Source: Nitrosopumilus sp. (GTDB lineage Archaea > Thermoproteota > Nitrososphaeria > Nitrososphaerales > Nitrosopumilaceae). Taken from it: 64,000 nt of DNA. Shown piece by piece: positions 12,595-42,043 of this stretch. Made by a program: the position numbers and the translations under genes. Under the pieces are notes generated by a model. That model worked only from the letters and a program-made list of their open reading frames with translations. It was not told the origin of the DNA and did no database searches. The stretch is from assembly GCA_965214775.1 (NCBI GenBank), contig OZ243974.1, forward strand, positions 1,088,001 through 1,152,000, read 5' to 3'. Position 1 is the first letter of the stretch. Each line of letters begins with the position of its first letter.

Positions 12595-12776
12595 ATCAAA
12601 GTGTATGTGCCCAACTGAACGGAAAACTCCCATTCGCCCTCAATGATGTGGCATTTCGTCGTCCGTCTACTCTGAGCCAGTCTCATACACGCCCTCATAT
12701 GTGGCAAGTTTACTTCGGCTCTTGGGCCCAACATGGATAATATGGCGTCCGCTACAGATAAGATTTGATATAACGT
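12595..12776 (-). ncRNA. Putative IS110 bridge RNA (copy 3 leader)
   Basis: Loop segment TGTATGAG equals the flanking target TGTATGAG (plus strand 12682-12689 = 12777-12784); stems GAGCC/GGCTC and GCC/GGC. RNA boundaries approximate. Confidence 0.75.
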
Positions 12777-13224
12777 CTCATACAAGGAGAACAGGAAGTT
12801 TGCAGAATGGGTGTGACTGTATGTGTTGCACTGCGGGGACGGGAGGTGGGTGACCCTGCATGGTGCGGTCATGGAAGGGGTGTCCGTCCCCTGGCCCCAC
12901 CCACCCAATGATCTTATAGGATATGTTTGCACCCGACGGCATGAAACGTTTCAAATGGATATCATGGTTAGGAATTTACCGCGTTATCAGTATGAGGATA
13001 ATGCCTCGGGGAACTAACTGCGGGATCGCCTAACAAATGGATGAAGATGGTACTGGGGGAAGGCCCCGAATGGATACATGTCCGCCCATCCTTTGGAAGT
13101 GGATCAACCCTAGCGAAAGTCATGCACCATGTCACGAAATCTAGGAAAATGCTTAAAAAGAATTCACATGGATACTGACAGTATTATCATTTTAACTTAA
13201 TTAGTTGTGTGTTGGATAGTCTAA

Positions 13225-13740
13225 TCATGTGAGACCTGCATCCCCAACATCCGAAACTGATACGCTATCAGTAGTGTTGTGTGCAGCCCATAGATATGGA
13301 TCTCCCAATTGATTAGTATAATCTACATACCATTCTAATTTTGACAAAATTGTTCTACGTTTTAGAATGACTGGGGGATCTCCTTGTATCACAAATTCAT
13401 TCCAAGGTTCAAAAGGTTGGTCTTGTATGTAGCTTGTTAATTCCATTTTCTTTGCTTTCTTCATATCTTCTGGTGTGGGATTTGATGTGGGTTCTTTTTT
13501 CTTTCCTCTATTGGTAAATGAAACAATCATTTGTCCTCCAACCATGAATGTTGGATCAGTGGATATTTTTTGATTTGGCGGTATTTTTTCATCAGGAACT
13601 TGCATAATGTTAGCTGGGATATTCACCAAGCGTAACGTTCCTTGTACTTGGGAATGATCAATTTCATATGTGTTATACTGAATCTTTTTAATTCGAAATA
13701 ATTTATCAACAAGATCTTTTGGGTTTATTCGAACCGACAT
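13225..13740 (-). CDS. Hypothetical protein with two similar beta-rich halves
   Basis: IQYNTYEI...DPTF and EPWNEFVI...GDPY; third gene of an AT-rich operon. Confidence 0.7.
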   Translation of the reverse strand: MSVRINPKDLVDKLFRIKKIQYNTYEIDHSQVQGTLRLVNIPANIMQVPDEKIPPNQKISTDPTFMVGGQMIVSFTNRGKKKEPTSNPTPEDMKKAKKMELTSYIQDQPFEPWNEFVIQGDPPVILKRRTILSKLEWYVDYTNQLGDPYLWAAHNTTDSVSVSDVGDAGLT

Positions 13741-13743
13741 TTT

Positions 13744-14166
13744 CTAGACTCTTGTTTTCTTTGTAAGTAAAATTACTTGTAGGTTATCATTATATAACCT
13801 GTCAGCGTTATCTATTGCTTCCAGTATATGAAGCACATCATTTGAAGATTGAATTTCTTGTTTGTTCTCATGAATTTGTTCTCTTGTTTGATCATTACTA
13901 GCTCGTTTGAAATAATTTATCTTAAATGGAATTTGTTCAGTTTCTGGAATATCCTGGTTTATTGCTAATTGTTTTGCTTGAATCATTGCCTTGTCATAAC
14001 CACTTTCAGTTAATGCAGAATAATTGCACATAGGACATACATAAGATTCAAAATTGCCTACATGTTCCCCATACATTTTGAATGGAGCATTTTTTTTCTG
14101 TAACGATATAAAACATCTAGGACAGCCAATATCACCACTACTGTTTCTAATGGGAGACTCGTTCAT
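13744..14166 (-). CDS. YgiT/MqsA-type zinc-ribbon protein, putative antitoxin
   Basis: CPRC...YVCPMC followed by a polar tail. Confidence 0.6.
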   Translation of the reverse strand: MNESPIRNSSGDIGCPRCFISLQKKNAPFKMYGEHVGNFESYVCPMCNYSALTESGYDKAMIQAKQLAINQDIPETEQIPFKINYFKRASNDQTREQIHENKQEIQSSNDVLHILEAIDNADRLYNDNLQVILLTKKTRV

Positions 14167-14230
14167 GATGTTAGTGCGCCATATCTTAATAAATACTTAC
14201 TAAAATAAGTTGAAAACAAATCATTCCTGC

Positions 14231-14461
14231 TCATGCCTGATAGGCTGTTCGTAAATATAAAAAACAACTACGCAATGATACAATAATCTCCCATTTTTCC
14301 CACTTTACTTGATATTCGTTTTTCGTCATTTCGATTTTTTTACCCTCTTTTAATGCGACCTTAATTTGACTTGATGGCAAATGTCTATCATTCATCCTAT
14401 CCATAAAGTGATTATCATAAATCCGTTCACAATCTTTCCAGGGATCTACCAATATGACCAA
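14231..14461 (-). CDS. DUF4258/RelE-like small putative toxin
   Basis: NHFMDRMNDR...IKVALKEG...LRTAY pattern; upstream of the zinc-ribbon gene. Confidence 0.55.
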   Translation of the reverse strand: MVILVDPWKDCERIYDNHFMDRMNDRHLPSSQIKVALKEGKKIEMTKNEYQVKWEKWEIIVSLRSCFLYLRTAYQA

Positions 14462-15088
14462 ACAATAATTTTTACTATATTTTTCTATGTTTTTTCAGAC
14501 ATATTTCTTTAATTTTTTACGCATTTCTTCCTGTTAACTATCGGGACAGGATAAATACGGCAACGATATTAGATGAGCATGAGTGTCGGTAAGCTGCAAA
14601 TTATGCAATCATCTAGATGATAATCTGTCAGCCTAGTCTACACCTCTTGCGGTATCCTTGCAAACGTATCGGTGAGTACGATTTTTACAACCGCAATTAC
14701 CTCTTTTTCCTATTCAAATCACTTCCTCCAAGGACTTCGAGGAGGAAGCTACTGCGATCAACGGCCTCGTGAAAACCATGGAGCAAAACGGGCTCTCGAT
14801 CAAAGGACTGTAAACGACAGGGTTGTGAAAACTGACTGCTAATATTTATACAAGACCTTATGCGTAATCGACCGGATCAAAATATTCCGACGGTGGCCGG
14901 CCACACATGCAAAGCTGACGGCATCACATGACGTGTATGAGCACGGTAAAGTGGAGTGGACCCCTGTAAGTAGAAACGATTTTGGCGACATTTTATGCAC
15001 ACTTTAATCGCTCATTTTTGCGGCACCTCCTGCATTTTCCGGACAAACTCGTCCGGCGTCAGGTATCCCAGTGCCGAGTGGATCCTGT

Positions 15089-15181
15089 GTATGTGGTCAC
15101 GTCCCCCTGTTGACTAGGTGTGAAAATCATAGTCATAGATGTCAATTCGTGCCTGATTGGCAGGGGTAGGTGACCTCATAC
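15089..15181. mobile_element. MITE family E
   Basis: GTATGTGGTCAC...GTGACCTCATAC; degenerate 8-bp duplication GATCCTGT/GATCTTTT. Confidence 0.85.
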
Positions 15182-15195
15182 GATCTTTTTCGTAG

Positions 15196-15284
15196 TTTTA
15201 TATACGAATGCACATTTGAAAAAATAATTTTATATAAATACATGCACATTTGAAAAAATAATTTTATATAAATACATGCACATT
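15196..15284 (+). repeat. 34-bp tandem repeat (2 full plus partial units) containing TATA-like TTTATATA
   Basis: ATGCACATTTGAAAAAATAATTTTATATAAATAC at 15208 and 15242. Confidence 0.9.
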
Positions 15285-15286
15285 CC

Positions 15287-16531
15287 CAGTAGTTCCGATT
15301 GTGACCCCGGCCTGCCCTAGCCCGGATCGGGGGGCTTTTTGTTCCATGGTCTCATACACCATCTTATAATCCGGGCAAGCAGCACCTTGAGCTTGATCTT
15401 CTTTTTTTTGCACCATGATCTTGCGATCATCCAGATGTTAGACATTCCAAGCGACAGGTAGAACAGTATGAGTCTTATGGCATCGTTCCGACTGCAGGTG
15501 CGCGGCATGGCCCTCTTGACGTCCCGGTATCCGGTCTCTATTCCCCACCTCTTGCGGTACTCCTCGGGAAGCTCAAACAAATCCTCCGGCGTGCAGTTGG
15601 TCATGTTGGTGACAAAGGCGATGTGGAACTTTTTCTTGTTTTTATCCTCCCTTTCCAGTATTATCAGGTTGCATCTTATCTTGCTGCTGCCAGAGGATAT
15701 GGTATACTTGCTGACTGCATCCCTGTGCCCGTCTATGTGCTCCTGTATGGCCCTCTCAACTCCCTTGGTGCATACTGCAGGAGTCATGAACCGCAATCCT
15801 GCATTATTTATCGTGTTGAGTACGTCAACTGAGTAAAACTCCTTGTCCATCAGGACCATCTGCGGCCTGATGTGCATTCTCTTGATGGTTTGCAGCAATT
15901 TACGCACGAATTCGGGGTTAAACGCGTCCCTGGTCACCGGAAGGCACGCAAGGTGCGTCTGGTGCTTTTGTCCTACTGTTCTTGCAGTGATGTATGCCTC
16001 AGCCGTGCGGGTGCCCGGCCCCCTGTACTTTATCTTGTGGGTCATGTCCGGATTGTGGTCGTACCGCGGGATCTTGGTCTTGTCGATGGCTATGATCGGG
16101 GATTTTCCAATCAGGCCACCCTTGATGGAGTCTGTGACGGTCCTGCGCAGGATCTTGTCGGCCCTCTTGTGCATCGTCTCATAGTCCACCTGGCCCAGCT
16201 TGCCAAGCAGCCAGTCGGCGCCGGGGCTGCGGCCTGCAGAGTCCCGGAGTATCTCTGCGGCCTGTTCTGCGCACATGCGCTCCTTGGACATCGTTGCCAG
16301 AAGCGCAGCTGCATCCGTTTCATCGTATATTGCGTTGTGTCTGTCAGAGAACTTCATGCCTACTGCCGAGACGGCGTTCTGGAACATCTTGCGCTCCCTG
16401 TGTCCGTACGGCTTTTGAGCGGCCCTGGCACTTTTTGTCATGCAGGAATTGCTAAAAGTTCCCCCTATAGATCCAAGTGATCATAAAATCTGTCAATTTG
16501 CCTTATTTTCAGGCCACAATCGGAACTACTG
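15287..16531 (-). mobile_element. ISH3-family element, intact
   Basis: CAGTAGTTCCGATTGTG inverted ends; 5-bp duplication ATTCC. Confidence 0.93.
15317..16441 (-). CDS. ISH3-family transposase
   Basis: IAIDKT, LMDKEF, YRKRWGIETGY. Confidence 0.92.
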   Translation of the reverse strand: MTKSARAAQKPYGHRERKMFQNAVSAVGMKFSDRHNAIYDETDAAALLATMSKERMCAEQAAEILRDSAGRSPGADWLLGKLGQVDYETMHKRADKILRRTVTDSIKGGLIGKSPIIAIDKTKIPRYDHNPDMTHKIKYRGPGTRTAEAYITARTVGQKHQTHLACLPVTRDAFNPEFVRKLLQTIKRMHIRPQMVLMDKEFYSVDVLNTINNAGLRFMTPAVCTKGVERAIQEHIDGHRDAVSKYTISSGSSKIRCNLIILEREDKNKKKFHIAFVTNMTNCTPEDLFELPEEYRKRWGIETGYRDVKRAMPRTCSRNDAIRLILFYLSLGMSNIWMIARSWCKKKKIKLKVLLARIIRWCMRPWNKKPPDPG

Positions 16532-16878
16532 ATTCCAGCATTATGAGCCTAAGCCCTGCCTCGTATGATGACAATCCTTGGTGGACAGATATTGACGAAA
16601 TCAATCAAGAACGGGAGATTAAAAATTGGGAGGACAGCCCAATCAAGTGGGATCCTAGGATACGTCAAGCATTTGATTTTACAAATGATATAATCTACTC
16701 TCTGCGGGGACCAAGACAGGTTGGCAAAACAACCCTGTTGAAGTTACAGATTAGGGAATTCCTTCAAAATGGCGTATCGCCCTGGAATATAATGTACTAT
16801 GCGTTTGACGTTGACAACTCTCCGAAAAACCTAGTGGAGGTTATCGAAAACTACCTAAACAGCACCAAGAGGCTACGT

Positions 16879-17001
16879 CAGTACTTCCTAGGTGTGCTTT
16901 TGCAGACCCGGCACGACATAGCCGCTAATTTTGTTTACGCATAAGGTCTTCTGCAAATTACGTAATTGCCGTGCCTGTAAAAGTACACTTGGGAAGTACT
17001 G
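16879..17001. mobile_element. MITE family C (123 bp), copy 1
   Basis: CAGTACTTCC...GGAAGTACTG ends; identical to 18563-18685. Confidence 0.92.
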
Positions 17002-17022
17002 ACTTAGATGTTACCCAGCGCC

Positions 17023-17143
17023 CAGTCTTCCTAAATGTACCCGATTCATGGCGGTGCAGATTATGACATGCGGATCTACAGGCAGCTTAGTTTGCACTGT
17101 TTCGAACTTGGAGCCGTTTTGTGGGGAACTTTTGGGAAGACTG
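17023..17143. mobile_element. MITE family B (~120 bp, CAGTCTTCCCA...TGGGAAGACTG)
   Basis: Inverted ends; shared core GCAGATCCGC; about eight copies in the window. Confidence 0.85.
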
Positions 17144-17187
17144 ACTTAAGATAATAATATAAGAAACCTTCTGGAAGGCAAATCACA

Positions 17188-17724
17188 ATGTCTGCTGCAT
17201 TACTTGATCATATTACTGACCGAATCAACAAAATGGAAGATGACGGGGCGGTAGACGAGGCCATAGTTGACGATTTGGATGAACTCAAACAAAAATTACT
17301 GGATGTTGAAGATAGATGGCTTTCAGTTGATGACAAAAACAGCTTCTACTTTTATCAAGGAATCCGTGACGTGGAGTTGATTCTTGAAAGAATGGTCGAA
17401 CGATTCAAAGCTGCAAAAATAAAACATGACAATCCCCAAATTGCACTAGACACGCTTGCAGTGATTCCTATTGTAAATGAAATTATTCAAATTGCCGAAC
17501 ATGGCAAAGCAGATGACGCAGCTGTAAATCAAATTTTGGAGCGTACGCACCAGTTGCGAGACAAGGCTCACGAGACAAATCTTATCGAGTCTGACGAAAG
17601 AAACCTGCATGAAGTAGACAAGGAAACACTGGGCAAATCCTTTGACAAGGTTCTTGACACTCTGGAGATTCCGTCTGATTTGCCAGACGACGTATGCGTT
17701 GACGAGGATAAAGATATTTCCTGA
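17188..17724 (+). CDS. Acidic helical protein, possible antitoxin partner
   Basis: Overlaps the downstream PIN gene; function inferred from context only. Confidence 0.65.
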   Translation: MSAALLDHITDRINKMEDDGAVDEAIVDDLDELKQKLLDVEDRWLSVDDKNSFYFYQGIRDVELILERMVERFKAAKIKHDNPQIALDTLAVIPIVNEIIQIAEHGKADDAAVNQILERTHQLRDKAHETNLIESDERNLHEVDKETLGKSFDKVLDTLEIPSDLPDDVCVDEDKDIS

Positions 17725-18514
17725 TTCTAGCGTAATAGTATCTGCCAGTATTCAGGCAAATGTTGCAAGTATTGGCGTAACGGTAAAGCACCGATTCTAT
17801 GAGGACTCGATACATCTGTTCAGCATTTTTCGAAAACGCGCAAACAAAGGCATGGGAGTAACCACTAAGACAGTTCGCGGCGAATCCTTTCATGCTCTAT
17901 CCAGGGCTGTAACAAATTCCATTTTAGAGAACCTTCCTGCAGAAAAAGACAAGCGAAAAAGATTGTTTGATGAGACAACCTCGATTGTTAACCTGTGTGA
18001 CAGCAAAATGAGAGATCTGTTTTCTACTCTGCTGCTGGAAACTCCCTCAAATGACATTGTTCGGCAATGCGTGACCGATGTGACTGACATGTCAAAACAT
18101 ATCAAAATGCGTTACGAATCCAGATACATCAACAGAACGAATCGCAACATTGAGGCCAAACGCAGGACTGAGTCGATAACAAACTCGACATGGAAAGGGA
18201 CTTTGAAGGGTGAGGCATATCGTGCGCAAAGATTACAGGTAGAACGGGAAGCAGTCCAGGTGAAAAAATTCATGTCAAAATATCCAAATCCCGGAGACAG
18301 CAGGATACTGGCCGAGGCTTTGGCAATCAAGAGACAGATCGAGACCTATGGACAACATGTGAATTTCTATATTGCGTCTTCCGATACCGGATTTTTCTCC
18401 CCTCATAGAGTGAAGGGTGGTGCAAAATCTGATATTGTAACCAATGAGATAAGCACCAGGTTTGGAATAACCTGTGATTTTCCAGCAGAAATCAGAAAAT
18501 TGGCTAATCTATGA
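17699..18514 (+). CDS. PIN-domain protein
   Basis: IFPDSSVIV, GDSRILAEA, FYIASSD acidic motifs; TTG start. Confidence 0.7.
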   Translation: MTRIKIFPDSSVIVSASIQANVASIGVTVKHRFYEDSIHLFSIFRKRANKGMGVTTKTVRGESFHALSRAVTNSILENLPAEKDKRKRLFDETTSIVNLCDSKMRDLFSTLLLETPSNDIVRQCVTDVTDMSKHIKMRYESRYINRTNRNIEAKRRTESITNSTWKGTLKGEAYRAQRLQVEREAVQVKKFMSKYPNPGDSRILAEALAIKRQIETYGQHVNFYIASSDTGFFSPHRVKGGAKSDIVTNEISTRFGITCDFPAEIRKLANL

Positions 18515-18562
18515 AACTCTTAACTCTGAAATTTCAATCTAGCCAGAGATTTTTCACTACTT

Positions 18563-18685
18563 CAGTACTTCCTAGGTGTGCTTTTGCAGACCCGGCACGA
18601 CATAGCCGCTAATTTTGTTTACGCATAAGGTCTTCTGCAAATTACGTAATTGCCGTGCCTGTAAAAGTACACTTGGGAAGTACTG
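18563..18685. mobile_element. MITE family C, copy 2 (direct orientation)
   Basis: Identical to 16879-17001. Confidence 0.92.
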
Positions 18686-19945
18686 ATGTGGCGATTCGAG
18701 ATTCTTTTTGTTCTTAGATGAGGTATCGAAAGTAAAAAATTGGCCAGACGGGATAAAGCGCCTAAAGGACAGGCGGAAATTAGACAATGCCACAGTCATC
18801 CTGACCGGTTCATACGCAATTGATCTAAAAAAATCCTTGGAGAACCTGGCCGGCAGGCGCGGCAAAACGAATGAGGTCTATGACAAAGTACTCCTCCCGA
18901 TGAAATTTTCAGAATATGTCTCAGTCATGGACGCTGGATTGAAAAAACAGCTGATCAAAAACAAGCTGCTCAAAAGGGAGGATCGAATCAGAACCATTAA
19001 AAAATTACTCCGCTCCGAGATTGATTCGTCCCTTGACAGGCTCCAGCCCCAGCTGGCATCCCTTAACTCCCTGCTGTTGGATTACATGCTGACCGGGGGC
19101 ATTCCGCAGGTCGTCAGCGCGTATTATGACCGAAGATATTTGGACGAATACCTATACACAACGTACCTTGACTATGTTTTAGGGGACCTCAAGTCACTGC
19201 GAAGAAGTCCGATCATTGTTGGACAGCTGGCATCCAACATAATCAAAAACCTAAGCTGGCCGCAAAGCTGGCTATCTCTTCAAAAGGACACCGATATACG
19301 AAACCCAATAACCGCCGGAGAGTATGTGCACGCCCTTGATGACATGTTTGTACTGACATTTTTTTATCATTATGATCCTGAGAAGAAAAGACCAGTGGTT
19401 AGGAAAAACAAAAAGATCCATTTCCATGATCCGTTCTTCCTGCACTCGCTAAACGGATGGATCTCGTCAGGGAACTCCTTTAGGACTGCGCAAAATTATG
19501 TCCGGGACGCAACCAACCAGGGCCCGCTGGTGGAGGGGATAGTCGGTGATCATCTGGCACGGCTAGCGTTTGAGCTGAGCGATAAAAAACAGAACTTTGA
19601 TTATCACAACCACCTGTTCTACTGGAACAAAAAGAAAGAGACCGAGGTGGATTACATAGTCAAACTTGGGGGTTTTGAGCTGCCCGTAGAGGTCAAATTT
19701 CAAAACACCATACGAAACAAGGATCTCAGGGGAATCCGCTATTTCAGTTCGCTGACAAAGGCTCGAAACTCAGTAATGCTATCCAAAAGTACGATGGAAA
19801 AGACCGACGATGCCGTGGTGCTTCCGGCAGCATTCTTTTTGCTTTTAATCTGAGCCTGCGATGGACTCCTTTCCTCCAAGCCTCCTCAAAAGTCACACGT
19901 GAGGCAGATCCAAGCTGTAGCCAGCTCATAGAAGAAACATACAAC

Positions 19946-20202
19946 CAACTAAGTGAAAAGTACCCCGGTCGGACAGACAACCAAGAAATTTAGACCGTCT
20001 TGACAACACTGACAGATGCAAACAGATCAATTATAGCAACGGTCACAAGTAATTGAGGGCCTTGACCGGCGATCTGTAAATGTACTTGTATATGCAAAGG
20101 TGGGCAAATGACACCGTCCTGTATAGCAACGGTCACAAGTCTTTGAGTCAAAGTAGGTCATAACTACACGGAAAAAACCCCAATTATTTCTGCCTGTTGC
20201 TA
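19946..20202. mobile_element. Remnant cluster: ISH3-type end, IS630 3' end and IS630-derived MITE
   Basis: CTAAGTGAAAAGTAC matches the ends of 58260-59552; TAGCAACGG termini match the IS630 copies. Confidence 0.8.
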
Positions 20203-20405
20203 TAAAACGGTTACAGACCCTGCCAAAAGAGATCTGTCCTGGCCAAATTACCAGATGCGCTGTCTTTTGATATCCAGAGAGAACCCAAAAACCAGGAAAT
20301 TTCCAATCCTTAACCTAAATTCCGTGCCTAGAATCAGGGAAACATTGTTTGTGAATTATTGTGATGCTTAACTTTCATATTTGATTCCCCAAAAAATTCA
20401 ATCAA

Positions 20406-21422
20406 ATGAACTGGAGACTGGCTGTAATTCCTGCAACATTGATTCCGATCTTCATCATAGCCATACAGTTTGACATAAAACTCGAGGATGTTTTGGCAAT
20501 TGGGCTCTTTCCATTTTTGGGCGCAGTTGTTGCAATGATGATCAAGCTGGGCCTTCAAGGAATCAAGTTTGCATATATTACCAGACGGTATCTTGGAGAA
20601 TTCGATTCGTTTTTGAAACTGACAGGAGTCAGGGTTGGAAGTGAGTTTATCAAGTTTACAACACCGATGTTTGTTGGGGCAGAGTTCATTGTGATTTATT
20701 ATCTGCACAAAAAGGGAGTCAAGCCTTCAAAGTCGGCATGGATTGCAATTATGGATATCGTAACTGAGGTGTTTGCAGGAGGGTTGCTATCTATTATGGC
20801 AGGAGTTGTTGCTTTGCTAAACGGCGCATATGTGGTTGCAGGAGTCGTCCTTGGCACCAGCATCGCCGTAACCTCGCTGTGGATGGTATTGTTCTTTTTG
20901 TCATCAAGACGCACATTCCAGGTTCCCAAGGTTTTGGCCGTTCTTGCACAAAGATTTGGAAAAGAGAAAGGAGCAAAATACATCGAACAAACGAACTCCT
21001 GGATGAAGGAAGTCTGTACGATGAGCCGTGAAAACCTCAAAACTTCGGAATCCAAAAAAGTTTTCACGGTATCCTTCTTGTTCTCTCTTGCCTCATGGGC
21101 GTTTTATGGAATATCATTTATGATAATTGCAATGGGCACCGGCTACGTAATTGGCGCATTTGATTCAATTATGGCCGTAATGGGCGCAAACGCAATTGGT
21201 AATCTGCCAATTACGGTTGGAGGCTCGGGACTTGCAGAATTTGGAATTGTTGCATATTTGAATAATTTGGATCCCTTCAACCTTCACATTCCTGAAGGGA
21301 CTGGGGCCTGGGACGCTGTTATTGGATGGAGAATTGCGACATATTACGTACCAATTGCAATCACTTGGCTGCTCCTGGTAAAGCTGGCTTTAAGCAAAAT
21401 CTCAAAGCCTCAAGTATCATAA
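20406..21422 (+). CDS. Lysylphosphatidylglycerol-synthase-TM / flippase-like membrane protein
   Basis: Multi-TM; TP...GAE, P.T.GGSG.AE and WR..TYY motifs. Confidence 0.8.
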   Translation: MNWRLAVIPATLIPIFIIAIQFDIKLEDVLAIGLFPFLGAVVAMMIKLGLQGIKFAYITRRYLGEFDSFLKLTGVRVGSEFIKFTTPMFVGAEFIVIYYLHKKGVKPSKSAWIAIMDIVTEVFAGGLLSIMAGVVALLNGAYVVAGVVLGTSIAVTSLWMVLFFLSSRRTFQVPKVLAVLAQRFGKEKGAKYIEQTNSWMKEVCTMSRENLKTSESKKVFTVSFLFSLASWAFYGISFMIIAMGTGYVIGAFDSIMAVMGANAIGNLPITVGGSGLAEFGIVAYLNNLDPFNLHIPEGTGAWDAVIGWRIATYYVPIAITWLLLVKLALSKISKPQVS

Positions 21423-21548
21423 AACGACCTGCCTTCATAGACCAGAAAATAACTCCGACAACCATCTAACATAAAAATACCATTTTTAATTAGTTGACAA
21501 TCATTAACTAATAGGAAATATTGATTTTCCAAGTACAGCGACGGTATT

Positions 21549-21625
21549 AGACTTGTGCGTAATCAGTGCAGATCAAAAAAATCAGGCAGCTTTTATGCCA
21601 TTTTTGGCAAATACGCATAAAGTCT
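21549..21625. mobile_element. MITE family H (IS5/ISL2-derived)
   Basis: AGACTT...AAGTCT ends with ATT duplication; related copies near 41529-41609 and 51627-51706. Confidence 0.8.
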
Positions 21626-22868: not shown

Positions 22869-22922
22869 TACAGTATGATTGTCTGCGTACAAGTATTATA
22901 TCTGTACCAGGCAAATGATTTG

Positions 22923-30885: not shown

Positions 30886-30896
30886 AGTGATGAACC

Positions 30897-31289: not shown

Positions 31290-31298
31290 CAACAACAG

Positions 31299-32496: not shown

Positions 32497-32605
32497 TAAC
32501 AGATCGATCCCTGGAAGTTCAGGCATGAATTTTTTGTCACCAATGAATGCCGATCAAATGGAATCTGTGCCAAGTCAGAAACGGCTTCCAGAGCCCGATC
32601 AATTA
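32497..32605. mobile_element. MITE family D
   Basis: TAACAGATCG...CCCGATCAATTA inverted ends. Confidence 0.75.
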
Positions 32606-33578: not shown

Positions 33579-34565
33579 TTACACGCGGCGCTCAAGATAT
33601 TTGTAGATGTCAACTTTAATGGAACACGTCCTAAAGTATTCTGAGACGGCTCTTTTGAGGTGATCTGCCGTATCGTAAAAGGCAGATGTGACCAGCCTGT
33701 ACTTGGCATCCTTCCAGATTGGCTCTATGCCACTCAGCTCCGGCCTAGCTACCGGCAGGTACAGCAGGACAACGTCGGGATTTTTCTTCAGGTACCTGCG
33801 AACCCTTCCGGTCTTATGCTGTGATGCGTTGTCCATCACCATCAGTACCTTTCCCCACTTTTTGCGCGCCTGCTTGAGATAACGCACAAAGTTTATGCTG
33901 TTGAACTTGTCGTATGTGTGCATCAGCCTGGTTCCGTCGTCTGCAACCGTTCCGTATACCACGACGCGCTCCCTTCTGCCGGATCGTTGCACCTCGATCC
34001 TGTCCCCCACTGGCGACCAGAACTTTCTGCCGTCCCTTCCCGTACTGACGAATATCGACTCGTCCTGTACGGTTATCCTGAATCCGCGCCTTTTTGCAAG
34101 CCTAATCGTGTCTTTTGCCTCCCTTTGCCATCGTCTTACCTCCTTTGCGTCGGCAGCATTTGCCAGCTTGGTAGTTGACGTCTTTAGCGAGAATCCCATC
34201 GTGCGCAGGATTCTTCTGATGCTTCCAACGCTGTATGTGACATGCAGTTTGCGGCGCACCCAGTTGCGCATCTTCTTTGGGGTGAGCTTTTCCATCCTGC
34301 GCAGCCTCGTGGCGATCTTTTTTATCCTGCCGACTGGGACCTTTGGCTTTTTCCCCCTGTTGGGGGAGTCACGGAGACCGTCAACGCCGTCAAGCTCAAA
34401 CCTCTCAACCCACATCTGTACTGTACGCTGTGTCACGTCGGCAATCTCTGCGGTCTGTGCAGTGGTGTTGCCAAGCAGTACGGAGCGCACCGCTAGGATT
34501 CTGGTATAAACCCTGTTATCCTTTTCGACACGCATGGCATCCGTGAGGATTTTCGTCTTGTTCAT
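33579..34565 (-). CDS. IS630 transposase
   Basis: VQDES, MDNASQH, PELSGIEPIW. Confidence 0.9.
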   Translation of the reverse strand: MNKTKILTDAMRVEKDNRVYTRILAVRSVLLGNTTAQTAEIADVTQRTVQMWVERFELDGVDGLRDSPNRGKKPKVPVGRIKKIATRLRRMEKLTPKKMRNWVRRKLHVTYSVGSIRRILRTMGFSLKTSTTKLANAADAKEVRRWQREAKDTIRLAKRRGFRITVQDESIFVSTGRDGRKFWSPVGDRIEVQRSGRRERVVVYGTVADDGTRLMHTYDKFNSINFVRYLKQARKKWGKVLMVMDNASQHKTGRVRRYLKKNPDVVLLYLPVARPELSGIEPIWKDAKYRLVTSAFYDTADHLKRAVSEYFRTCSIKVDIYKYLERRV

Positions 34566-34705
34566 GTCAGAAGGGCCATGGCGGAGATCTCCCATATGAA
34601 ATCGTACCAGATCCTACCGTGGACCCTTGCCAGCGTGATGTTCCGAATCAGGACAATGTTGCTATGCGATGCATCCTCTTATACTTTCTCTGCGTGAGAG
34701 TCTTG

Positions 34706-35746
34706 TCTATCATACGAAAATTAGTTCCGCCTAAGATCAGGCGTACTTTGAAGGATTATTTTAGGCTGTACCGATCAAAAAACGTGAGGAAAAAATTGGA
34801 GGAAAAGTCGCTCCGGTACATAGAAAAGCAGAGGAAAAAGGGCGTGCCTGCAAAGCAGATAGCCCGGGAGCTGGGCATCAGCGACAGGTATGTCAGGAAG
34901 ATATGGGCCAGATTCCGCAGCTCCGGCACAGTCCTGCCACGGAGCGGGGCAGGAAGGCCCTGCATGGACACGGATCCCGTGGATGTGGAGGCGGTCCTTG
35001 ACGCATATGCGCGGATGCCGTCGGGTGTGGAGAGGCTGGCATTGCGCATGAGGGCCGCAGGCAGGCAGATAAGCTACCATGCAGTATACAGGATCATGAA
35101 GGCCGAGGGAATAACGGACGGCTCGCCTGCCAGACCCAGACAGCTCAAGTGGCTGCGCTATGAGCGCAAGTACTCCAATGCAATGTGGCACGTGGACTGG
35201 CACGAAATGAAGGATTCACGCCTAGAAAAACTCAATCTGGTGGCATATCTTGACGATTCCTCGCGGTGCATAACCGGATTTGGCGTCTTTGAGCGCGCGA
35301 CCTCGGAGAACGCAGTCCTGGTGCTGCGCAAGGCCATCAAAGAGTTCGGGACGCCGGCCCAGGTACTCTCGGACAACGGCAGCTGCTTTACGTCAGCCAG
35401 GCGCGGTACCCCAAGGGGCAGCTGGACGCCCACGCTGTTTGAGAACGAGCTGCTAGAGCACAGCATCGTCCTGCTCAACTCGCGTCCGCATCACCCCCAG
35501 ACCAACGGCAAGTTGGAGAGGTGGTTCAGAACGCTTGAGAAGGAGCTGACGCACTTTGAGAAGGTAGACGAGTTCATCGAGTTCTACAACGAGCACAGGA
35601 CGCACTGGTCGCTTGACATCAAGCGTGCAGAGACTCCCAGAATGGCGTTCCGGAGCCGGGAGGCCACAGAAGCGATCAGGAAAAGCGACCCCAAATGGAT
35701 GGAGAAGGATACTAATGAGGGGCGGAACTAATTTTCATATGAAACA
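34706..35746 (+). mobile_element. IS481-family element
   Basis: GAAAATTAGTTCCGCC inverted ends; 15-bp duplication TGCGTGAGAGTCTTG. Confidence 0.92.
34784..35731 (+). CDS. IS481 transposase (rve integrase core)
   Basis: WHVDW, LDDSSR, SDNG, PQTNGKLER. Confidence 0.92.
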   Translation: MRKKLEEKSLRYIEKQRKKGVPAKQIARELGISDRYVRKIWARFRSSGTVLPRSGAGRPCMDTDPVDVEAVLDAYARMPSGVERLALRMRAAGRQISYHAVYRIMKAEGITDGSPARPRQLKWLRYERKYSNAMWHVDWHEMKDSRLEKLNLVAYLDDSSRCITGFGVFERATSENAVLVLRKAIKEFGTPAQVLSDNGSCFTSARRGTPRGSWTPTLFENELLEHSIVLLNSRPHHPQTNGKLERWFRTLEKELTHFEKVDEFIEFYNEHRTHWSLDIKRAETPRMAFRSREATEAIRKSDPKWMEKDTNEGRN

Positions 35747-35944
35747 TGCGTGAGAGTCTTGCTCTGAGTGCGGTACTCTTCTCCGGTGGTCAGCATGTGC
35801 CAGATTATCTCCAGCATATGCCTTGCAACTGCAATCTTTGCCTTCTGCCATCCTCGTCTCTTTCTTATCCTTTCATATATAGAACCAAGTCTTGAGTCGT
35901 TTCGTACTGCTGTGGCCGAGTTGATCATGTTATCACCTCCTTTT

Positions 35945-36122
35945 TGATCAAAATGCCTGATCCGGGCGGAATCTCCCATTCACCGTCTGCGCGGTATATT
36001 GCTTTCCGCCTGCTGTTACGAGTCAGTCTATAAAACACCCTTGTACATGGTAAGATCACATCGACTCTCAGGCCCAACGATAATTGTATATCACAGGATA
36101 CTGATAAGATTTCATATAGCGT
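35945..36122 (-). ncRNA. Putative IS110 bridge RNA (copy 2 leader)
   Basis: Guides GTGATCT and TTTATAG match both halves of the target GAGAT-CT-ATAAA; ATGGGAG matches the element's own right end. Confidence 0.8.
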
Positions 36123-36820
36123 CTATAAACCTTCACAAGACGTGTAATCAGGCGAAATTTTCAATGATCGTCAGTATAGATGAGGTTTCCGCGCTTGCGC
36201 ATCAGGGCCAGCAGGAAGGCGTGTCTGTAGGACAACTTGCACCGGTTTCCGGGCCCGTCGTCCTCGTCCTCAGAAAACAGGGGGGCACTCTGTATGCTTT
36301 TTGGCCTTCTCCGTATACAGGTTTAATATATATTCAAACTGACGCAGGTTCAGGGACGTGGTGGCCTGCAGGGATTCGCTACCGATTATGATGTCATCAA
36401 GCACCTCGAGCCTGTGCATGAACGCGGCGTTCTCTGCGGTATGCCTTTTGTCATTCCATGTTACAGGCCAGAACCCGCGCTCAAAGTCCAGCCTCTGGTT
36501 TAACTGCCCTATCTTGTCCTGGGCCTGCTCGTACATTTGCCTGTACTGTGCATTCTCCCTCCCTTGCTGCCTGGCCTCCCTCTTGTCCTGAATCTTCTCC
36601 TGCCTGTGCCTTTGCCTGTACTGCTCATTCGCTTTCCTCAGTTGCCGTATAAGCACGGTCTCGGACTTTGCCATCACTCCTGTTCGAGGATGGATCCCGG
36701 ATCTAAATCAACCGACTGAAAATAGTTGCAGTTTTGATCAAATATTTTGGACAATGCGAGGCGCTGCCTGCCAGCCTGATGCATGATCAGCTTGCAAACA
36801 GGATATTTCGATCCGGGCGA

Positions 36821-37306
36821 TTACGCATAAAGTCTATTATATTTTTTATAGAAATCGATTGCATCTTTGGTAAATAATACGATGTATCTACAGCCAATTT
36901 TTTCTGATACAATTCTAGCTAGTCCATTGCACCACATTAGTACATATTTTCCAAATCCTTTTCCTCGCAATCTTTTATCAATACAAAAATCAAGAATTAT
37001 CATGGAAGGAAAGAATGCACCATCACGAGTAGGAGCTCTCTTTTTTGGAACAATCTCATCTTTGTGAATGTTTGATGAAGCCAGAGTTACATAACCTATT
37101 GTTTTGTTTTTGTAATTAACAAGATATGTTGTACCCAAATGCGCCTTTTGATTCTTCAACGCTCTTTTTTCAATAAAGTTTTGTAAAAATTGAGAATCTT
37201 GACCTTTGTTATCTGTGCAATCAAGACATGGTTTAGTTTTTGAGTTTATTTGTGGAAAACTAAAAGCAGTTGTATCAATTACATCTTTTCTGGAAGAGCC
37301 ACTCAC
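36821..37306 (-). CDS. GNAT acetyltransferase (TacT/AtaT-like putative toxin), C-terminus clipped by the IS5 end
   Basis: IGYVTL, RGKGFG, AIDFYKK; last codons lie inside the IS terminus. Confidence 0.75.
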   Translation of the reverse strand: MSGSSRKDVIDTTAFSFPQINSKTKPCLDCTDNKGQDSQFLQNFIEKRALKNQKAHLGTTYLVNYKNKTIGYVTLASSNIHKDEIVPKKRAPTRDGAFFPSMIILDFCIDKRLRGKGFGKYVLMWCNGLARIVSEKIGCRYIVLFTKDAIDFYKKYNRLYA

Positions 37307-37357
37307 AAAATTGTGAAAGTATGCAGGTAATTATTTTTTGCTTTGCTGAGGAATTGG

Positions 37358-37495
37358 CTATGAGCAATTATTGCGATAAAATTCTTCAGATTCTGCCATG
37401 AATTGTCGTTCTTTTTTTGTAGATTTGCTTTTTTGATATTTATCAAAAGACTTTGCATTTTTATCCTTTAGAACTATAGGATCATTTGGATTCAT
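37358..37495 (-). CDS. 45-aa putative antitoxin (absent from the ORF track)
   Basis: MNPNDPIVLKDKNAKSFDKY...; directly upstream of the GNAT gene. Confidence 0.5.
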   Translation of the reverse strand: MNPNDPIVLKDKNAKSFDKYQKSKSTKKERQFMAESEEFYRNNCS

Positions 37496-37552
37496 TCCAA
37501 CATCGTCTCCAGTATAGAGGGACTTTCTATGCTCTTAAATTAAGCATTTCAT

Positions 37553-37674
37553 CAGTCTTCCCAAAAGTAACCCAAAAAACGGCTCCAAACCGTGAAACAG
37601 TTCAAGCCCAACTGCCTGCAGATCCGCATGTCACCTACTGCACCGCCGTGAGTTGGTTACTTCTGGGAAGACTG
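37553..37674. mobile_element. MITE family B
   Basis: CAGTCTTCCCA...TGGGAAGACTG. Confidence 0.88.
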
Positions 37675-37686
37675 TATATGCTAGAA

Positions 37687-37823
37687 GACATATATGTTGG
37701 TAGACATATCATGGGATCTTGCCTCGATGGTATGGCTGATCAGTATCTTCATGATCATACTCCCACGTCGCATCCCCGTGAGGCACAAATATCCGCCGAC
37801 ATATATGTCAGTAGACATATATG
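37687..37823. promoter_or_regulatory. Repeated palindromic GACATATATGTY motifs upstream of an ATPase gene
   Basis: Units at 37687, 37703, 37798 and 37814 (two pairs with 16-bp period); regulatory role inferred. Confidence 0.5.
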
Positions 37824-37844
37824 ATGATAAACATAGTGTAACGC

Positions 37845-39011
37845 ATGTCAGTGATTGGCAGGCCTCCGGAAGACCCCGTAGACAGGGAAGAGGAGGTCGG
37901 TAAGATCGTAGGTGCCATGACAGACCCAAAGACCAATGCAAATTATGCGCTTGTCGGACATAGAAGAATAGGCAAGTCAACCATACTAGCAAAGGTCAAA
38001 AGGATTCTAGATGAGAACAATCAGGTAATTATAGGATACGTCGATCTTGGCGAGTTCCGACATTCCCCAGTTGAGTTTGCAGAGACATTGACAGAAAGCC
38101 TGACAGAGTCATATTCCAAGACCCTTCCAAGAACTTCCAAGGTAATCCAGTCGATCACATCGGCAATATCTCAGATCAAGGAGATCAAGAGGCTGCGTGC
38201 CAGGTTCACTGCAAGTGTAGATGTGATGGGAAATCCAAAAATAGAGATCGACCCCCTTGTCAAGAGCAGAACAAAAGATCATGCAAAATCCCTCTTCAAT
38301 GTATTTGACTATGCAAATGAGCTGTCGCAGATATCAAAAAAGAGGGTACTGGTAATCATAGACGAGTTTCAGCACATTATAGACTACAGGAAGATGGAGG
38401 GGCTTGAGAGAATACATGACATACTCAAGACAATTATTGAAAAAAGAACCAACGTATCATTTGTGGTAAGCGGCTCTAGGGTTCATTACCTTCAAAACAT
38501 TCTGGGAGGGGGTACAAGTCCACTGTTTGGTCATTTTGTGATTCTTGACATAGAACCTTTGGAGAAAAAATACGCAATTGAGCTGTTTGCAAAGTCCAGC
38601 AGAGACCCGGCTAGTAGGGAAACCGCAGAGGCCGCATTTGAGGAGGTGGGAGGACATCCCTACTATCTTGTAATGCTTGCAGAGGGGAGAAAAAAAGACG
38701 AGTTGGTTCATGATGCATACATGCGGCTGCTTACGAGGCCGACTGGCGCGATATACCTGTATGTCAACTATGTCCTGACTGAGAACCTTGGAGCAAGCTA
38801 CAAAAGCACCAACTATCCCCCAATACTGGTGTCGCTTGCAATGGGAGCAAAACCAGTCTCTGAGATAGCAAGGGACGCACAAATCAGGATGACGGATTTG
38901 CCAAGACTGCTAAACACGCTGATCGAATATGACATCATAGGAAAATCAGGTAAAAAATACTTCATAGCAGACAAGGTGGTACGGGACTTTTTCTGCCAAG
39001 CGGGCGCGTAG
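37845..39011 (+). CDS. Archaeal AAA ATPase with C-terminal winged HTH
   Basis: GHRRIGKS, IIDEFQ, SGS, GGHPYY. Confidence 0.88.
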   Translation: MSVIGRPPEDPVDREEEVGKIVGAMTDPKTNANYALVGHRRIGKSTILAKVKRILDENNQVIIGYVDLGEFRHSPVEFAETLTESLTESYSKTLPRTSKVIQSITSAISQIKEIKRLRARFTASVDVMGNPKIEIDPLVKSRTKDHAKSLFNVFDYANELSQISKKRVLVIIDEFQHIIDYRKMEGLERIHDILKTIIEKRTNVSFVVSGSRVHYLQNILGGGTSPLFGHFVILDIEPLEKKYAIELFAKSSRDPASRETAEAAFEEVGGHPYYLVMLAEGRKKDELVHDAYMRLLTRPTGAIYLYVNYVLTENLGASYKSTNYPPILVSLAMGAKPVSEIARDAQIRMTDLPRLLNTLIEYDIIGKSGKKYFIADKVVRDFFCQAGA

Positions 39012-39130
39012 GCCAACCCCTGGTGCGGACCCCAAAAAAGAAGGAACGATCAGCAATGCACACTTTTTTTAGTTTGGAGGTCGAATCACAAATATGATCA
39101 AGAAAATATAGAGTACACAGGACAAGATAG

Positions 39131-39755
39131 GGATGGTCATGAAGCATCTCAACACCAACATCGAAACAGCAGAGTTGTGTAGCCGCCACAACCTCTCCCC
39201 AAGGACGTTTTACCAGTGGAGGGAGCGCTTTTTGCAGGCCGGACGCGCATCGCTGTTATAGTGCGTGCAGTTGAAAATGGAATATTTTTTTGGTGAAATA
39301 GGCACGATGTGTCAAAATCGTATTCCATTTTTTTATGTATTGACTACATCAGTATGTGGTCACGTCCCCTTGCTAGCTAGGCACGAAGATTACAATCATT
39401 CATGCTAATTTGTGCCTGACTGATGGGGGTAGGTGACCTCGTACCTTAATTCAGTCAAATGATCATTCTCTAGTCATGTTGGGAGATGAAGAATTAGACA
39501 GTGCCTAGAAAACAACAAGTATTTTCTCTTTTCTATGTATGTACAATTTTGTTTCATATGAAAATTGGTAATAGGATAGCCCTGCCTAGAGTTGGAGTCA
39601 CGCCCCTTGCCGGACATGCATGAAAATCACAACTGCAGGCAGATTCGTGCCTGATTACTGCCTAGGCAGGAGCTATCCTGTTACAGCAGAAATAATTGAG
39701 GTTTTTTACGTGTAGTTATAACCTACTTTGACTCAAAGACTTCTGTCCGTTGCTA
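39131..39755. mobile_element. MITE/IS remnant cluster: IS3-type HTH fragment, MITE A (39258-39347), E (39352-39444), IS481 end, F (39568-39684), IS630-derived MITE
   Basis: Each piece matches other copies in the window; fragment AELCSRHNLSPRTFYQWRERF. Confidence 0.8.
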
Positions 39756-39912
39756 TATAAGGTGTTACAAAACACCTAAACGTGAAATTGGTAGGAGAAT
39801 TGACGGTTAGCTATGACGGTGCTCTGGTTAAACCTTTGTCATTTGCCAATTATCTTTCACTAGACTTGGAAAAGATTTTAAGTCCTTTACTAATCCTTGG
39901 AGATCATAATTT

Positions 39913-41310
39913 GTGATTACAATGGATGCTTTAATTAAAAAGTCTACCAACTTGAACGGAAAAATACGAGTTCCTGGTTCTAAATCCTACACTCACAGAG
40001 TGATTGCAGCTGCCTCTCTCTATGGAAGCAATACATTAATTCGAAACCCGTCAAACTCTGATGCAAACGATGCCATGATTAAAGCATGTAGACAATTTGG
40101 CGCCTCTGTTGAATGGGATGGAAACAATATCAGGGTCAAGGGCGTAAAGGGTCATCCTACTCCGGACAAGCCCATTGATGTTGGTAATTCTGGAACTGCT
40201 ATGAGAATTGCAGTGGCTTTGGCGAGCTTGGCAAAAGGCAACTTGATAATAACAGGTGATCCTTCTTTACAAAACAGACCCACCAGGCCTTTGCTTGACG
40301 CTTTAAGGACCCTGGGTGTTGATTTGACTGGAATTTGTAAACAGACTGATGACGGCATTCAAGAATTTGCTCCAATTACAATCAATGCAACCGGTAGTGT
40401 AAGGGGCGGAAAAGTAGAGATATCTTGTAAAGAAAGTTCCCAATATCTGACTGCATTACTACTTGTTGGCAACTTTGCACAAAACGATGTTGAAATTACA
40501 GTAGCAGACACTGTTGTTTCTAAACCATATGTTAGAATGACTCTGGAAGTATTGCGTAAATTTGGACTAGACATCCGTGCTTCAGACGATTTAATGACAT
40601 ACAAAATCAAATCACAACAAGACTATCACAAGCCAGACAATTATGACATACCTGGGGATTATTCACAAGCCGCATTCCCGTTGGCAGCCGCATGCCTGGT
40701 CAATTCCGACATTAGAGTAAAAGGATTGGATCCAAATGATCAACAAGGCGATAAGATTATTGTGGATATTCTTAGGAGAATGGGTGCAATAATTGAAGAA
40801 GACGGTGATGACCTTGTTGTAAAAGGATCATTTGATCTGCGTGGAATTGAGGTTGATCTGATTGATGCCCCTGACCTATTTCCCGTACTGTCTGTATTGG
40901 GAATTTATGCTAACGGAAAAATGCGGTTGTACAACATGCCGCAAATTCGCTCCAAGGAGACTGATAGAATTGCAGTAATTGAACGCGAGTTGACAAAATA
41001 CGGAGTTAGAATAGAATCAAAGCATGATGAAATGACTGTATACCAGACTGACTTGCCTGAAAAAGAGTACGTGTTTAGTGCAAAAGGTGATCAGGGAGTG
41101 ACTGACCACAGAGTTGCCATGGCGTTATCCTTAATTGGCATTCGTAGCGGCTGTTCTGTCATTAAAGAAGCACACAAAATCGACGTTTCATATCCTGATT
41201 ATCTAGATGACATGGAGAGTATTGGAGTCAACATAGACAGAACGGGCTCAGAGACACCGTCAATTGATGCCAAACCAAAAAATGAAGTTACTCCCAATCT
41301 GGAAATGTGA
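39913..41310 (+). CDS. aroA: EPSP synthase
   Basis: PGSKSYTHR, GNSGTAMR, SSQYLTALL, KETDRI, DHRVAM. Confidence 0.93.
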   Translation: MITMDALIKKSTNLNGKIRVPGSKSYTHRVIAAASLYGSNTLIRNPSNSDANDAMIKACRQFGASVEWDGNNIRVKGVKGHPTPDKPIDVGNSGTAMRIAVALASLAKGNLIITGDPSLQNRPTRPLLDALRTLGVDLTGICKQTDDGIQEFAPITINATGSVRGGKVEISCKESSQYLTALLLVGNFAQNDVEITVADTVVSKPYVRMTLEVLRKFGLDIRASDDLMTYKIKSQQDYHKPDNYDIPGDYSQAAFPLAAACLVNSDIRVKGLDPNDQQGDKIIVDILRRMGAIIEEDGDDLVVKGSFDLRGIEVDLIDAPDLFPVLSVLGIYANGKMRLYNMPQIRSKETDRIAVIERELTKYGVRIESKHDEMTVYQTDLPEKEYVFSAKGDQGVTDHRVAMALSLIGIRSGCSVIKEAHKIDVSYPDYLDDMESIGVNIDRTGSETPSIDAKPKNEVTPNLEM

Positions 41311-41329
41311 AAAGACCTGCGATTGCTGG

Positions 41330-41843
41330 TAACAGCTCGGGCTCTGGGTGCAGTCCATGATTTCATGCGCGAATCTGCCCGGGAGGTTCTCCAAGATGGC
41401 AAAACTCATCCCTGAACTTCCAGAACCCGAGCTGTTGCCTCCAAAGCCGCACCTGTGGGTTCTGTGCAATCTTCGACACCTGAAATGTGGATCTTCTCCT
41501 GATTGAAACGATGGTATTCTGGACACGGTAGACCTCATGCGTAATCGGTTCAGATCTGGGATTATTACGAACAAATTCATCTCACTCGGGTCAATTACGC
41601 ATAAAGTCTAGCTTTTGATGCCAGATCCACGCACCGTCCTTGTTTCCACTGACTGATGCTGATGCGGCCCCTGATTCTGGCCGGTCTTGCATACTCAGAC
41701 AGGGGGCTAGTGATTTTTCGTACAGTCTTCCCAAAAGTAACCCAAAAAGCGGCTCCAATCTTGAAACCGTTCAAACCAAGCTTCCTGCAGATCCACACAT
41801 TGCCGTCTCAACTGCCACGAGTCGTGTACATCTGGGAAGACTG
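41330..41843. mobile_element. MITE cluster: D (41330-41437), H (41529-41609), B (41723-41843)
   Basis: Family termini recognisable in each piece. Confidence 0.8.
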
Positions 41844-41865
41844 TGCATGCACAAGTACATTACAG

Positions 41866-42043
41866 ACGCTATATGAAATCTTATCCGTATCCTGTGATAT
41901 ACAATTACCGTTGGGCCTGAGAGTCGATTGGAACTTACCATGTACAAGGGTGTCTTACAGACTGACTCGCAACAGCAGGCGGAAAGCAATATACCGCGCA
42001 GACGGTGAATGGGAGATTCCGCCCGGATCAGGCATTTTGATCA
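41866..42043 (+). ncRNA. Putative IS110 bridge RNA (copy 1 leader)
   Basis: TTACAG at 41955-41960 equals the flank at 41860-41865; stems GAGTC/GACTC and GGCGGAA/TTCCGCC. Confidence 0.78.

Follow-up and report, generated by a model that had tools for sequence, protein, structure and literature searches.

Candidate bridge RNAs in the leaders of an archaeal IS110-family insertion sequence with several target specificities in one Nitrosopumilus genome

A stretch of 64,000 nucleotides (nt) from Nitrosopumilus sp. (contig OZ243974.1, positions 1,088,001 to 1,152,000; hereafter the window) contains three copies of an IS110-family insertion sequence (IS), each with a long non-coding leader upstream of its recombinase gene. 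The leaders span positions 41866–42059 (copy 1, plus strand), 35929–36122 (copy 2, minus strand) and 12577–12776 (copy 3, minus strand), where the initial annotation had placed them, and all the strings quoted there were found in the sequence. These leaders are very probably the genes of bridge RNAs (seekRNAs), and the family would thus be a well-supported new example, from archaea, of a mechanism whose first description, in 2024, came from bacteria. Direct support comes from covariation in the RNA helices, covariation of the guides with both the flanks and the element ends, an empty target site, and a protein family with aligned catalytic residues. We infer from the sequences the transcription of the leader, the binding of its RNA by the protein, a circular intermediate and activity. 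The earlier proposal that an RNA-guided recombinase family was retargeted within one genome is borne out by guide-flank covariation, at least six guide classes and the empty site. Unprefixed coordinates are positions in the window, which sits in a single 2.83-Mb contig; those given as G000:C1 or as g-numbers are whole-genome positions.

One internal loop of the predicted RNA, the target loop, carries a 3′ strand that equals the left flank of the element, the AG core and the first two nt of the element itself. The matches first noticed between this strand and the flank are in place in all three copies: the guide cTTACAG against the flank aTTACAG in copy 1, tTTTATAG against gTTTATAG in copy 2 and gTGTATGAG against tTGTATGAG in copy 3. 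In copy 1, the strand (TCTTACAG plus AC, 41953–41962, plus strand) comprises the left target half, the core AG and a handshake-like extension of 2 nt; its segment 41955–41960 is the same as the left target half TTAC and core AG at 41860–41865 (core at 41864–41865). The corresponding strands on the minus strand are TTTTATAG plus AC in copy 2 (36026–36035), where the left target half and core at 36123–36131 read GGTTTATAG, and TGTATGAG plus AC in copy 3 (12680–12689), where the left flank at 12777–12784 reads TGTATGAG. Copies 1 and 2 are, as reported, nearly identical outside the guides: a comparison of the 194 leader positions shows 8 differences, of which 5 fall within the 15 guide nt.

The same rule was assessed across the genome. 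A BLASTN comparison of the three window leaders with the whole genome identified 30 leader-bearing loci in two subfamilies. The genome contains at least six guide classes: TTATAG, TTACAG, CAGTAG and AAACAG in subfamily-1 leaders about 91–100% identical to copy 1, and GTATGAG and GTAAGAG in subfamily 3. We compared guide and flank at the six positions upstream of the AG core in the 25 of 30 copies with an intact left end, with flanks shuffled among copies as the control; five copies whose left end is absent or degenerate (g369541, g1269606, g1874821, g2343044 and g2788319) were excluded before the count. The guides matched at 113 of 150 positions, compared to a shuffled mean of 59.1. Flanks shared by copies located in duplicated repeats were then collapsed to 18 independent flanks, which matched at 80 of 108 positions (shuffled mean 42.8; 0 of 100,000 shuffles as high). 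Guide-flank covariation in this genome, proposed earlier as a check across all copies, is therefore far beyond chance.

The 5′ strand of the target loop relates in a similar manner to the right flank. It ends in CT and is the complement of AG plus the right flank; consistent with the initial description, the strands TTGGAACT, TGTGATCT and AGTAAACT of copies 1, 2 and 3 all end in CT. The 5′ strand of copy 1 (ATTGGAACT, 41927–41935, plus strand) complements AG and a right target half TTCCA, although the right end of this copy is lost. The 5′ strand of copy 2 (ATGTGATCT, 36053–36061, minus strand) is the reverse complement of AG plus ATCAC, and its right junction (window position 34589) reads AG|ATCTC, a 6-of-7 agreement with the predicted AG|ATCAC, as had been noted; the right target half ATCTCC occupies 34583–34588 (minus strand). 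In copy 3 (AAGTAAACT, 12707–12715, minus strand) the 5′ strand is the complement of AG plus TTTAC, and the right flank foretold for this type, AG-TTTAC, is present at seven of nine subfamily-3 right ends. The flank foretold for the copy 1 type, AG-TTCCA, was correct in TTCC but not in the next base, which is T in elements that carry this guide or a nearly identical one: TTCC and then T follow the right ends where the guide is TTGGAACT or TCGGAACT, although TTCCA or TTCCG was predicted. A genome-wide comparison of the reverse complement of the 5′ strand with the first five flank bases, a weaker test than the one on the left, gave 37 of 55 matches in 11 left-right pairs (shuffled mean 28.8; 395 of 100,000 shuffles as high) and 28 of 45 in nine unique flanks (22.0; 2,350 of 100,000).

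We also identified an empty target site. The copy-2 target, ...GGTTTATAG|ATCTCCGCC, lies directly to the right of the intact copy g2030286 with its flanks joined via a single AG, and the same 40-nt flank that adjoins copy 2 is fused there to ATCTCC. The empty site reads ...TTTATAG|ATCTCC and the occupied site ...TTTATAG[element...GGGAG]ATCTCC, with the 2-nt core present once in the former and at both junctions in the latter, as in a precise insertion. Most insertion sites in the genome are at the termini of other repeated elements, as are nearly all of the unoccupied sites (27, 116 and 31 for three target classes). The 116 unoccupied sites are those of the subfamily-3 target GTA[ATC]GAG|TTTAC (e.g., C1:19046, 41285 and 132203); most are followed by a conserved CCCTCAGGCGACACTGCTGG..., so this target looks like the end of a small repeat of very high abundance. 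At least three further repeat families have the CAGTAG|TTCC target at their termini.

The leader is predicted to fold as a closing stem around two arms, each consisting of an outer stem, an internal loop and an inner stem. The initial annotation had described one such loop closed by two stems; this target loop is real, and a second one, the donor loop, can be added to it. The compensatory changes listed earlier (GAGTC/GACTC to GAGCC/GGCTC and ACC/GGT to GCC/GGC) are also real. For a broader comparison, we built a covariance model (R1) from a seed of 12 subfamily-1 leaders and used it to align the remaining leaders; the seed was limited to this subfamily because MAFFT misaligned the donor arm between subfamilies. 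R1 recovers the subfamily-3 leaders, none of which is in the seed. Among 30 aligned leaders from several genomes, the five helices are 93.8% paired (33–45% in controls with slid partners), in an alignment that was fitted to the model and so favours the structure somewhat, and in 18 of the 28 base pairs both partners have changed (values that 0 of 500 shuffles reached). Within the window, the model delimits a bridge-RNA core of closing stem, target arm and donor arm at 41908–42037 in copy 1 (plus strand; 164.4 bits, E 8.7e-47), which matches by construction because this copy is in the seed, at 35951–36080 in copy 2 (minus strand; 162.1 bits), also a seed member, and at 12605–12734 in copy 3 (minus strand; 72.9 bits, E 2.5e-19), which is not.

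These helices bear on the possibility that the leader segments are DNA sites, that is, internal copies of the junctions bound by a recombinase that itself encodes the choice of target. Such sites would explain why the target 3′ strand equals the integrated left junction, element bases included; the 10-bp subterminal inverted repeats of the element are DNA features as well, and the leader RNA is predicted from sequence only. However, five helices kept paired by compensatory changes point to selection on an RNA fold, the matching segments fall exactly on both strands of internal loops, and near-identical proteins go with different targets. Furthermore, the protein family is experimentally RNA-guided, according to the available parts of two studies (PMC11208160, PMC11187229). 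We consider target choice through DNA sites very improbable, and bridge RNAs better account for the leaders.

Elements in other genomes of the class follow the same rules. R1 matched 8 of 151 genomes, all from one family. Among 29 loci with IS110 genes from other genomes, 17 had an R1 match, always upstream of the gene; the 12 loci without one have mostly more distant or partial proteins. In most related loci, the target 3′ strand equals the left flank plus core at 7–10 of 10 positions, and the two bases that follow the core (AC, AT or AA) change together with the dinucleotide at the start of the element. The best match of a guide in its own upstream region reached at least 7 of 8 positions in 23 of 37 elements, compared to 27 of 1198 comparisons with the guides of other elements. 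The right flank agreed with the 5′ strand at 6 of 6 positions in L006 (TATTCA), L002 (TTAATT), L011 (TCTCAT) and the copies in genome G129 (TTCGTG). Retargeting within a genome recurs, with three guide variants in G129 and two in G117, each beside its own matching flank. L015 (genome G197, 1343–1480, reverse strand), from another family of the same order, has the core TG instead of AG. Its left flank and right end carry TG, as do both loops on their 3′ strands, and the target 5′ strand has CA.

If the leader were only a structured 5′ untranslated region controlling translation of the recombinase, its matches to the flanks would reflect chance or shared ancestry. The leaders of the three window copies do end in a Shine-Dalgarno-like GGAGGTGAT immediately before the recombinase start codon (each stops at ATGATCAAC), and flanks common to many copies are located in duplicated repeats. 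Yet collapsing those flanks to 18 still left a match above all 100,000 shuffles, the rule holds at unrelated flanks in other genomes, and in L015 three loop strands changed along with the flank and the right end when the core became TG. A role confined to translational control is thus extremely improbable, and the guide function of the leader remains our preferred interpretation.

The second internal loop is consistent with a bridge RNA that also reads the element. The 3′ strand of the donor arm, AAUGGGAG, equals the right-end terminus ATGGGAG and is near-invariant among elements, like the terminus. Where the terminus differs, the strand differs with it: L024 has GGAAG in both places, and in L015 the terminus is GGATG and the donor 3′ strand is altered in step. 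In copy 1, this strand (AATGGGAGA) is at 42008–42016 and the donor 5′ strand, (A)AGCAATA, at 41984–41991 (both plus strand). The first five bases of the donor 5′ strand are the complement of left-end positions +2 to +6, a reading derived from more distant elements; across 16 distinct combinations of strand and left end, 60 of 80 positions can pair, compared to 47.1 after shuffling (0 of 100,000 as high). Two other readings of this strand were rejected. A left-end complement containing the core (...GCGTCT) is absent as a string, and identity to the top strand has a different register in each subfamily.

Several observations weigh against the assignment of guide functions to these loops. Two of the copies counted above match their left flank poorly (g1690520 at 2 and g2169388 at 1 of 6 positions), and the single variable guide position of subfamily 3 agrees with the flank in only three of seven copies. 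The right flanks of g2634799, g2751228 and g2787936 match at 2, 1 and 1 of 5 positions; in these three worst pairs, the right end runs into internal sequence of the element in one case and into another leader in a second, and the third has a right flank from a different target class. The target 5′ strand lacks the terminal CT in L003 (AAT) and in the G036 elements L002, L056 and L068 (CA). In the donor loop, the 5′ strand of the window's subfamily 1 pairs at only 3 of 5 positions and has AAAU or AUAU where the complement of the core is expected. In addition to the fitted alignment mentioned above, the folding energies of single leaders were no better than those of shuffled sequences (z −0.55, −0.51 and −0.36), and Rfam gave no match at the gathering score in the whole window.

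Some of these exceptions have features of their own. Copies that break the guide rule on the left or the right look like chimeras or rearranged elements. Two loci that break it (G000:C1:2169388–2170884 and 2633345–2634799) are hybrid-looking: in one, a left end of subfamily 1 lies 1.5 kb from a right end of subfamily 3, and in the other, the left flank is of class II and the right flank of class I. Both likely arose via recombination between copies. The flanks and right ends of L002, L056, L068 and L003 retain AG, and as G036 still has several copies, a single mismatch in the core may be tolerated. Large internal loops are expected to give shuffle-like folding energies, and covariation was used as the evidence of structure because the energies of single sequences were not separated from those of shuffles. 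The sole Rfam match to the copy 1 leader at E values up to 10, sau-31, was judged a chance match.

The initial annotation listed an IS110 open reading frame downstream of each leader. The start of the gene is present in each case, but the window copies are without exception defective fragments: of a 359-amino acid (aa) protein, 201 residues remain in copy 1 and 64 in copy 3, and copy 2, which has both ends, was reduced by deletion to 478 bp and is split by a foreign IS. The genome has only three intact copies, all outside the window, with an open 359-codon frame, 96–100% identity, complete ends and flanks that match their guides. The intact element comprises 1336 bp (a 197-nt left end, the 359-codon gene and a 59-nt right end) and terminates on the right with CATATGGGAG. 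The 10-bp subterminal inverted repeat, ATATGAAATC at left ends and GATTTCATAT at right ends, co-varies at both ends, reading ATATCAAAT/ATTTGATAT in subfamily 3 and CATGAAAATC/GATTTTCATG in a distant relative. The intact protein has the conserved domains DEDD_Tnp_IS110 (PF01548, E 6.3e-28) and Transposase_20 (PF02371, E 4.9e-23) and matches the NCBIfam model of the IS110 family RNA-guided transposase (NF033542) with 248.6 bits against a cut-off of 140. It can also be aligned to the solved transposases of IS621 (E 4e-12) and ISCro4 (E 6e-12), with D7, E59, D98, D101 and the serine of GLTPSRRDS in register with the IS621 motif residues.

The condition of the copies raises the possibility that a true bridge-RNA family is now extinct in this genome and has left the pattern as a fossil record. 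The window copies are all fragments, the majority of the approximately 30 copies have short or broken reading frames, and several are chimeric. By contrast, the three 1336-bp copies are intact in frame, ends and flanks, and deletion derivatives with the same breakpoints are found at different targets, which implies that the deletion preceded their movement. Extinction is possible, though we think it rather unlikely; it concerns present activity only and is compatible with the leaders being bridge-RNA genes.

Short derivatives of the element are of two kinds, one joining IS positions 1–204 to 1049–1336 (478–484 bp) and the other 1–384 to 1225–1336 (487 bp). We found them at G000:C1:181547–182024, 807932–808415, 2726224–2726710, 2784518–2785004, 2787936–2788413 and 2831291–2831777, in addition to window copy 2. 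The recombinase gene is missing from both kinds, whereas the leader and the two ends are retained; derivatives with the same breakpoints sit at different targets, each with a matching guide. None of their guide classes was found in any intact copy. This suggests that the short derivatives were mobilized in trans with guides of their own.

Based on these features, integration could proceed as follows. The leader RNA would fold into a closing stem holding the two internal-loop arms, and with it the 359-aa recombinase would recognize a target such as CCATATCAGTAG|TTCCTAG. The two extra nt of the target 3′ strand, which equal the first two bases of the element, would occupy the position of the handshake guide in IS621. 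The donor 3′ strand AAUGGGAG would match the right-end terminus plus core, and the first five bases of the donor 5′ strand would complement left-end positions +2 to +6. A recombinase tetramer would then swap strands at the common AG (CT on the other strand) between the target and a circular element whose joined ends read ...CATATGGG-AG-ACGCTATATG..., leaving a precise insertion with an AG at each junction. Copies with an altered target loop would go to new sites.

The predicted system resembles that of IS621, whose reports (PMC11208160, PMC11208158), in the portions available, describe target guides on the 5′ side for the bottom strand (8–9 nt) and on the 3′ side for the top strand (4–7 nt), a CT core in all four guides and two handshake bases after the 3′ guide. 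As in IS621, the RNA is encoded in a long left end (197 nt, versus 59 nt on the right here) upstream of a DEDD/Ser recombinase gene, and it has a target and a donor internal loop with a 2-nt core common to target and donor. The last bases of the target 5′ strand are CU, and those of the 3′ strand are AG plus two handshake-like bases; insertion is precise and into repeats, and the protein aligns to the solved IS621 structure. Unlike in IS621, the guide strands are reversed relative to the gene, with a short top-strand guide on the 5′ side and a long bottom-strand guide on the 3′ side. The core reads AG rather than CT on the coding strand because of this reversal. The subterminal inverted repeats are also longer (7–10 bp versus 2–3 bp), the donor 5′ strand is without a complement of the core, and the sequence similarity is remote (E 4e-12).

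Other features are reminiscent of the IS1111 group. In the available text of PMC11187229, the seekRNA elements ISEc11, ISKpn4 and ISPa11 also have the top-strand complement 5′ of the bottom-strand match. This group further resembles the archaeal family, as far as the source describes it, in having subterminal inverted repeats of similar length (the IS1111 criterion is 7–17 bp), a preference for the termini of other mobile elements and natural reprogramming among close relatives. However, the long non-coding region is upstream here and, according to the same text, downstream in almost all IS1111 elements; the exceptions given are ISMtsp17, with the region upstream, and ISHvo10 and ISAcp5, with one on both sides. 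ISPpu9, an IS110-group element of Pseudomonas putida, in the sections of PMC12288879 available, shares recombination at an invariant AG in gene orientation, insertion in repeats and short non-autonomous relatives. Its relative MITEPpu9 carries another small RNA (Ssr9), whereas in the present family the short derivatives still have the leader of the bridge RNA itself, and their target guides are not the ones found in the intact copies. We discarded the reversed strand order as a novelty, as IS1111-type seekRNAs share the order (PMC11187229) and ISPpu9 uses AG (PMC12288879), going by the same portions of these reports. The family thus mixes features of the IS110 and IS1111 groups, each with a precedent.

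More tentatively, and with less than even probability, the bridge recombinases of this family could form an archaeal lineage of their own, intermediate between the IS110 and IS1111 groups. Such a lineage would combine an upstream RNA with an IS1111-like guide order and long subterminal repeats. One strand of its donor loop would read the element end without touching the core. Its 478–487 bp derivatives would be guide-only parasites: the recombinase would be supplied to them in trans, and their own guides would set the insertion site.

The bridge-RNA mechanism and its natural reprogramming are already published for the IS110 family (PMC11208160 and PMC11187229, in their available parts), and archaeal IS110 recombinases are on record, with 662 counted in one survey. 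A preprint (10.64898/2026.10.21.760802) clustered 181,180 IS110-adjacent sequences from bacteria and archaea, by the part of it available. This preprint and the 2024 survey of Durrant may already include the present family. A literature search in which most subscription journals lay outside the coverage returned no publication on bridge RNAs of Nitrososphaera or Thaumarchaeota elements; among the matches listed, only a metagenome study from 2012 combined IS110 with these names. The family would extend RNA-guided bridge recombination, worked out in bacteria, to ammonia-oxidizing archaea, with concrete, checkable rules that assign some bases to the reading of the target and others to that of the element ends. 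It also offers a natural series of retargeted guides in one genome and several relatives, a test case for the relationship between the IS110 and IS1111 architectures and, possibly, the seed of a programmable insertion tool for archaea, where genetic tools are few. The known mechanism is unchanged, and the finding would not surprise a specialist.

Rearranged copies elsewhere in the genome provide additional observations on the core. Remnants at G000:C1:1209796 and 1916180 (both minus strand) consist of a perfect left target half and AG, the last 16–17 nt of a right end, AG and a right target half. In intact right ends, an AG is located just upstream of the stretch that these remnants retain. 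They look like products of recombination between the left junction and this subterminal AG. At G000:C1:2788413, a right end is fused to the middle of a leader exactly after the AG of the target-loop 3′ strand. This fusion may reflect recombination at a self-encoded pseudo-site that mimics the left junction.

Each of the window copies has been altered in its own way. The left end of copy 1 (194 nt, 41866–42059) begins with ACGCTATATGAAATC, as does the leader of copy 2, and contains the repeat ATATGAAATC. It is followed by a truncated gene (42060–42665, plus strand) whose 201-aa product has the RuvC-like DEDD domain only (PF01548, E 9.1e-28), with no match to PF02371 in Pfam. The gene break adjoins the sequence …CATAACTACACGTAAAAAACCTC… (approximately 42666–42730), which also flanks the degenerate copy G000:C1:369541. 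The truncation was probably caused by another repeat.

Copy 2 (34589–36122, minus strand) joins IS positions 1–204 to 1049–1336 and is interrupted by the foreign IS. The interrupting IS (approximately 34707–35745; open reading frame 34619–35731, plus strand) is unrelated and encodes an rve-type integrase (PF00665, E 4e-13). It has the terminal repeats GGCGGAACTAATTTT, and about 16 bp of copy 2 is duplicated on its sides. A right-end fragment at G000:C1:2788796 has the same partial match as the interruption of copy 2, and this locus may carry a paralogous copy.

Copy 3 (12382–12776, minus strand) seems to be chimeric. By sequence comparison its leader, which begins with ACGTTATATCAAATC, belongs to subfamily 3, and the translated gene fragment (12382–12576, minus strand) has 64 codons before a stop. 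Judged from translations only, these codons closely resemble the subfamily-1 protein, which distinguishes copy 3 from g403765 and other copies of subfamily 3. The chimera may have formed by an exchange in the conserved stretch around the start codon.

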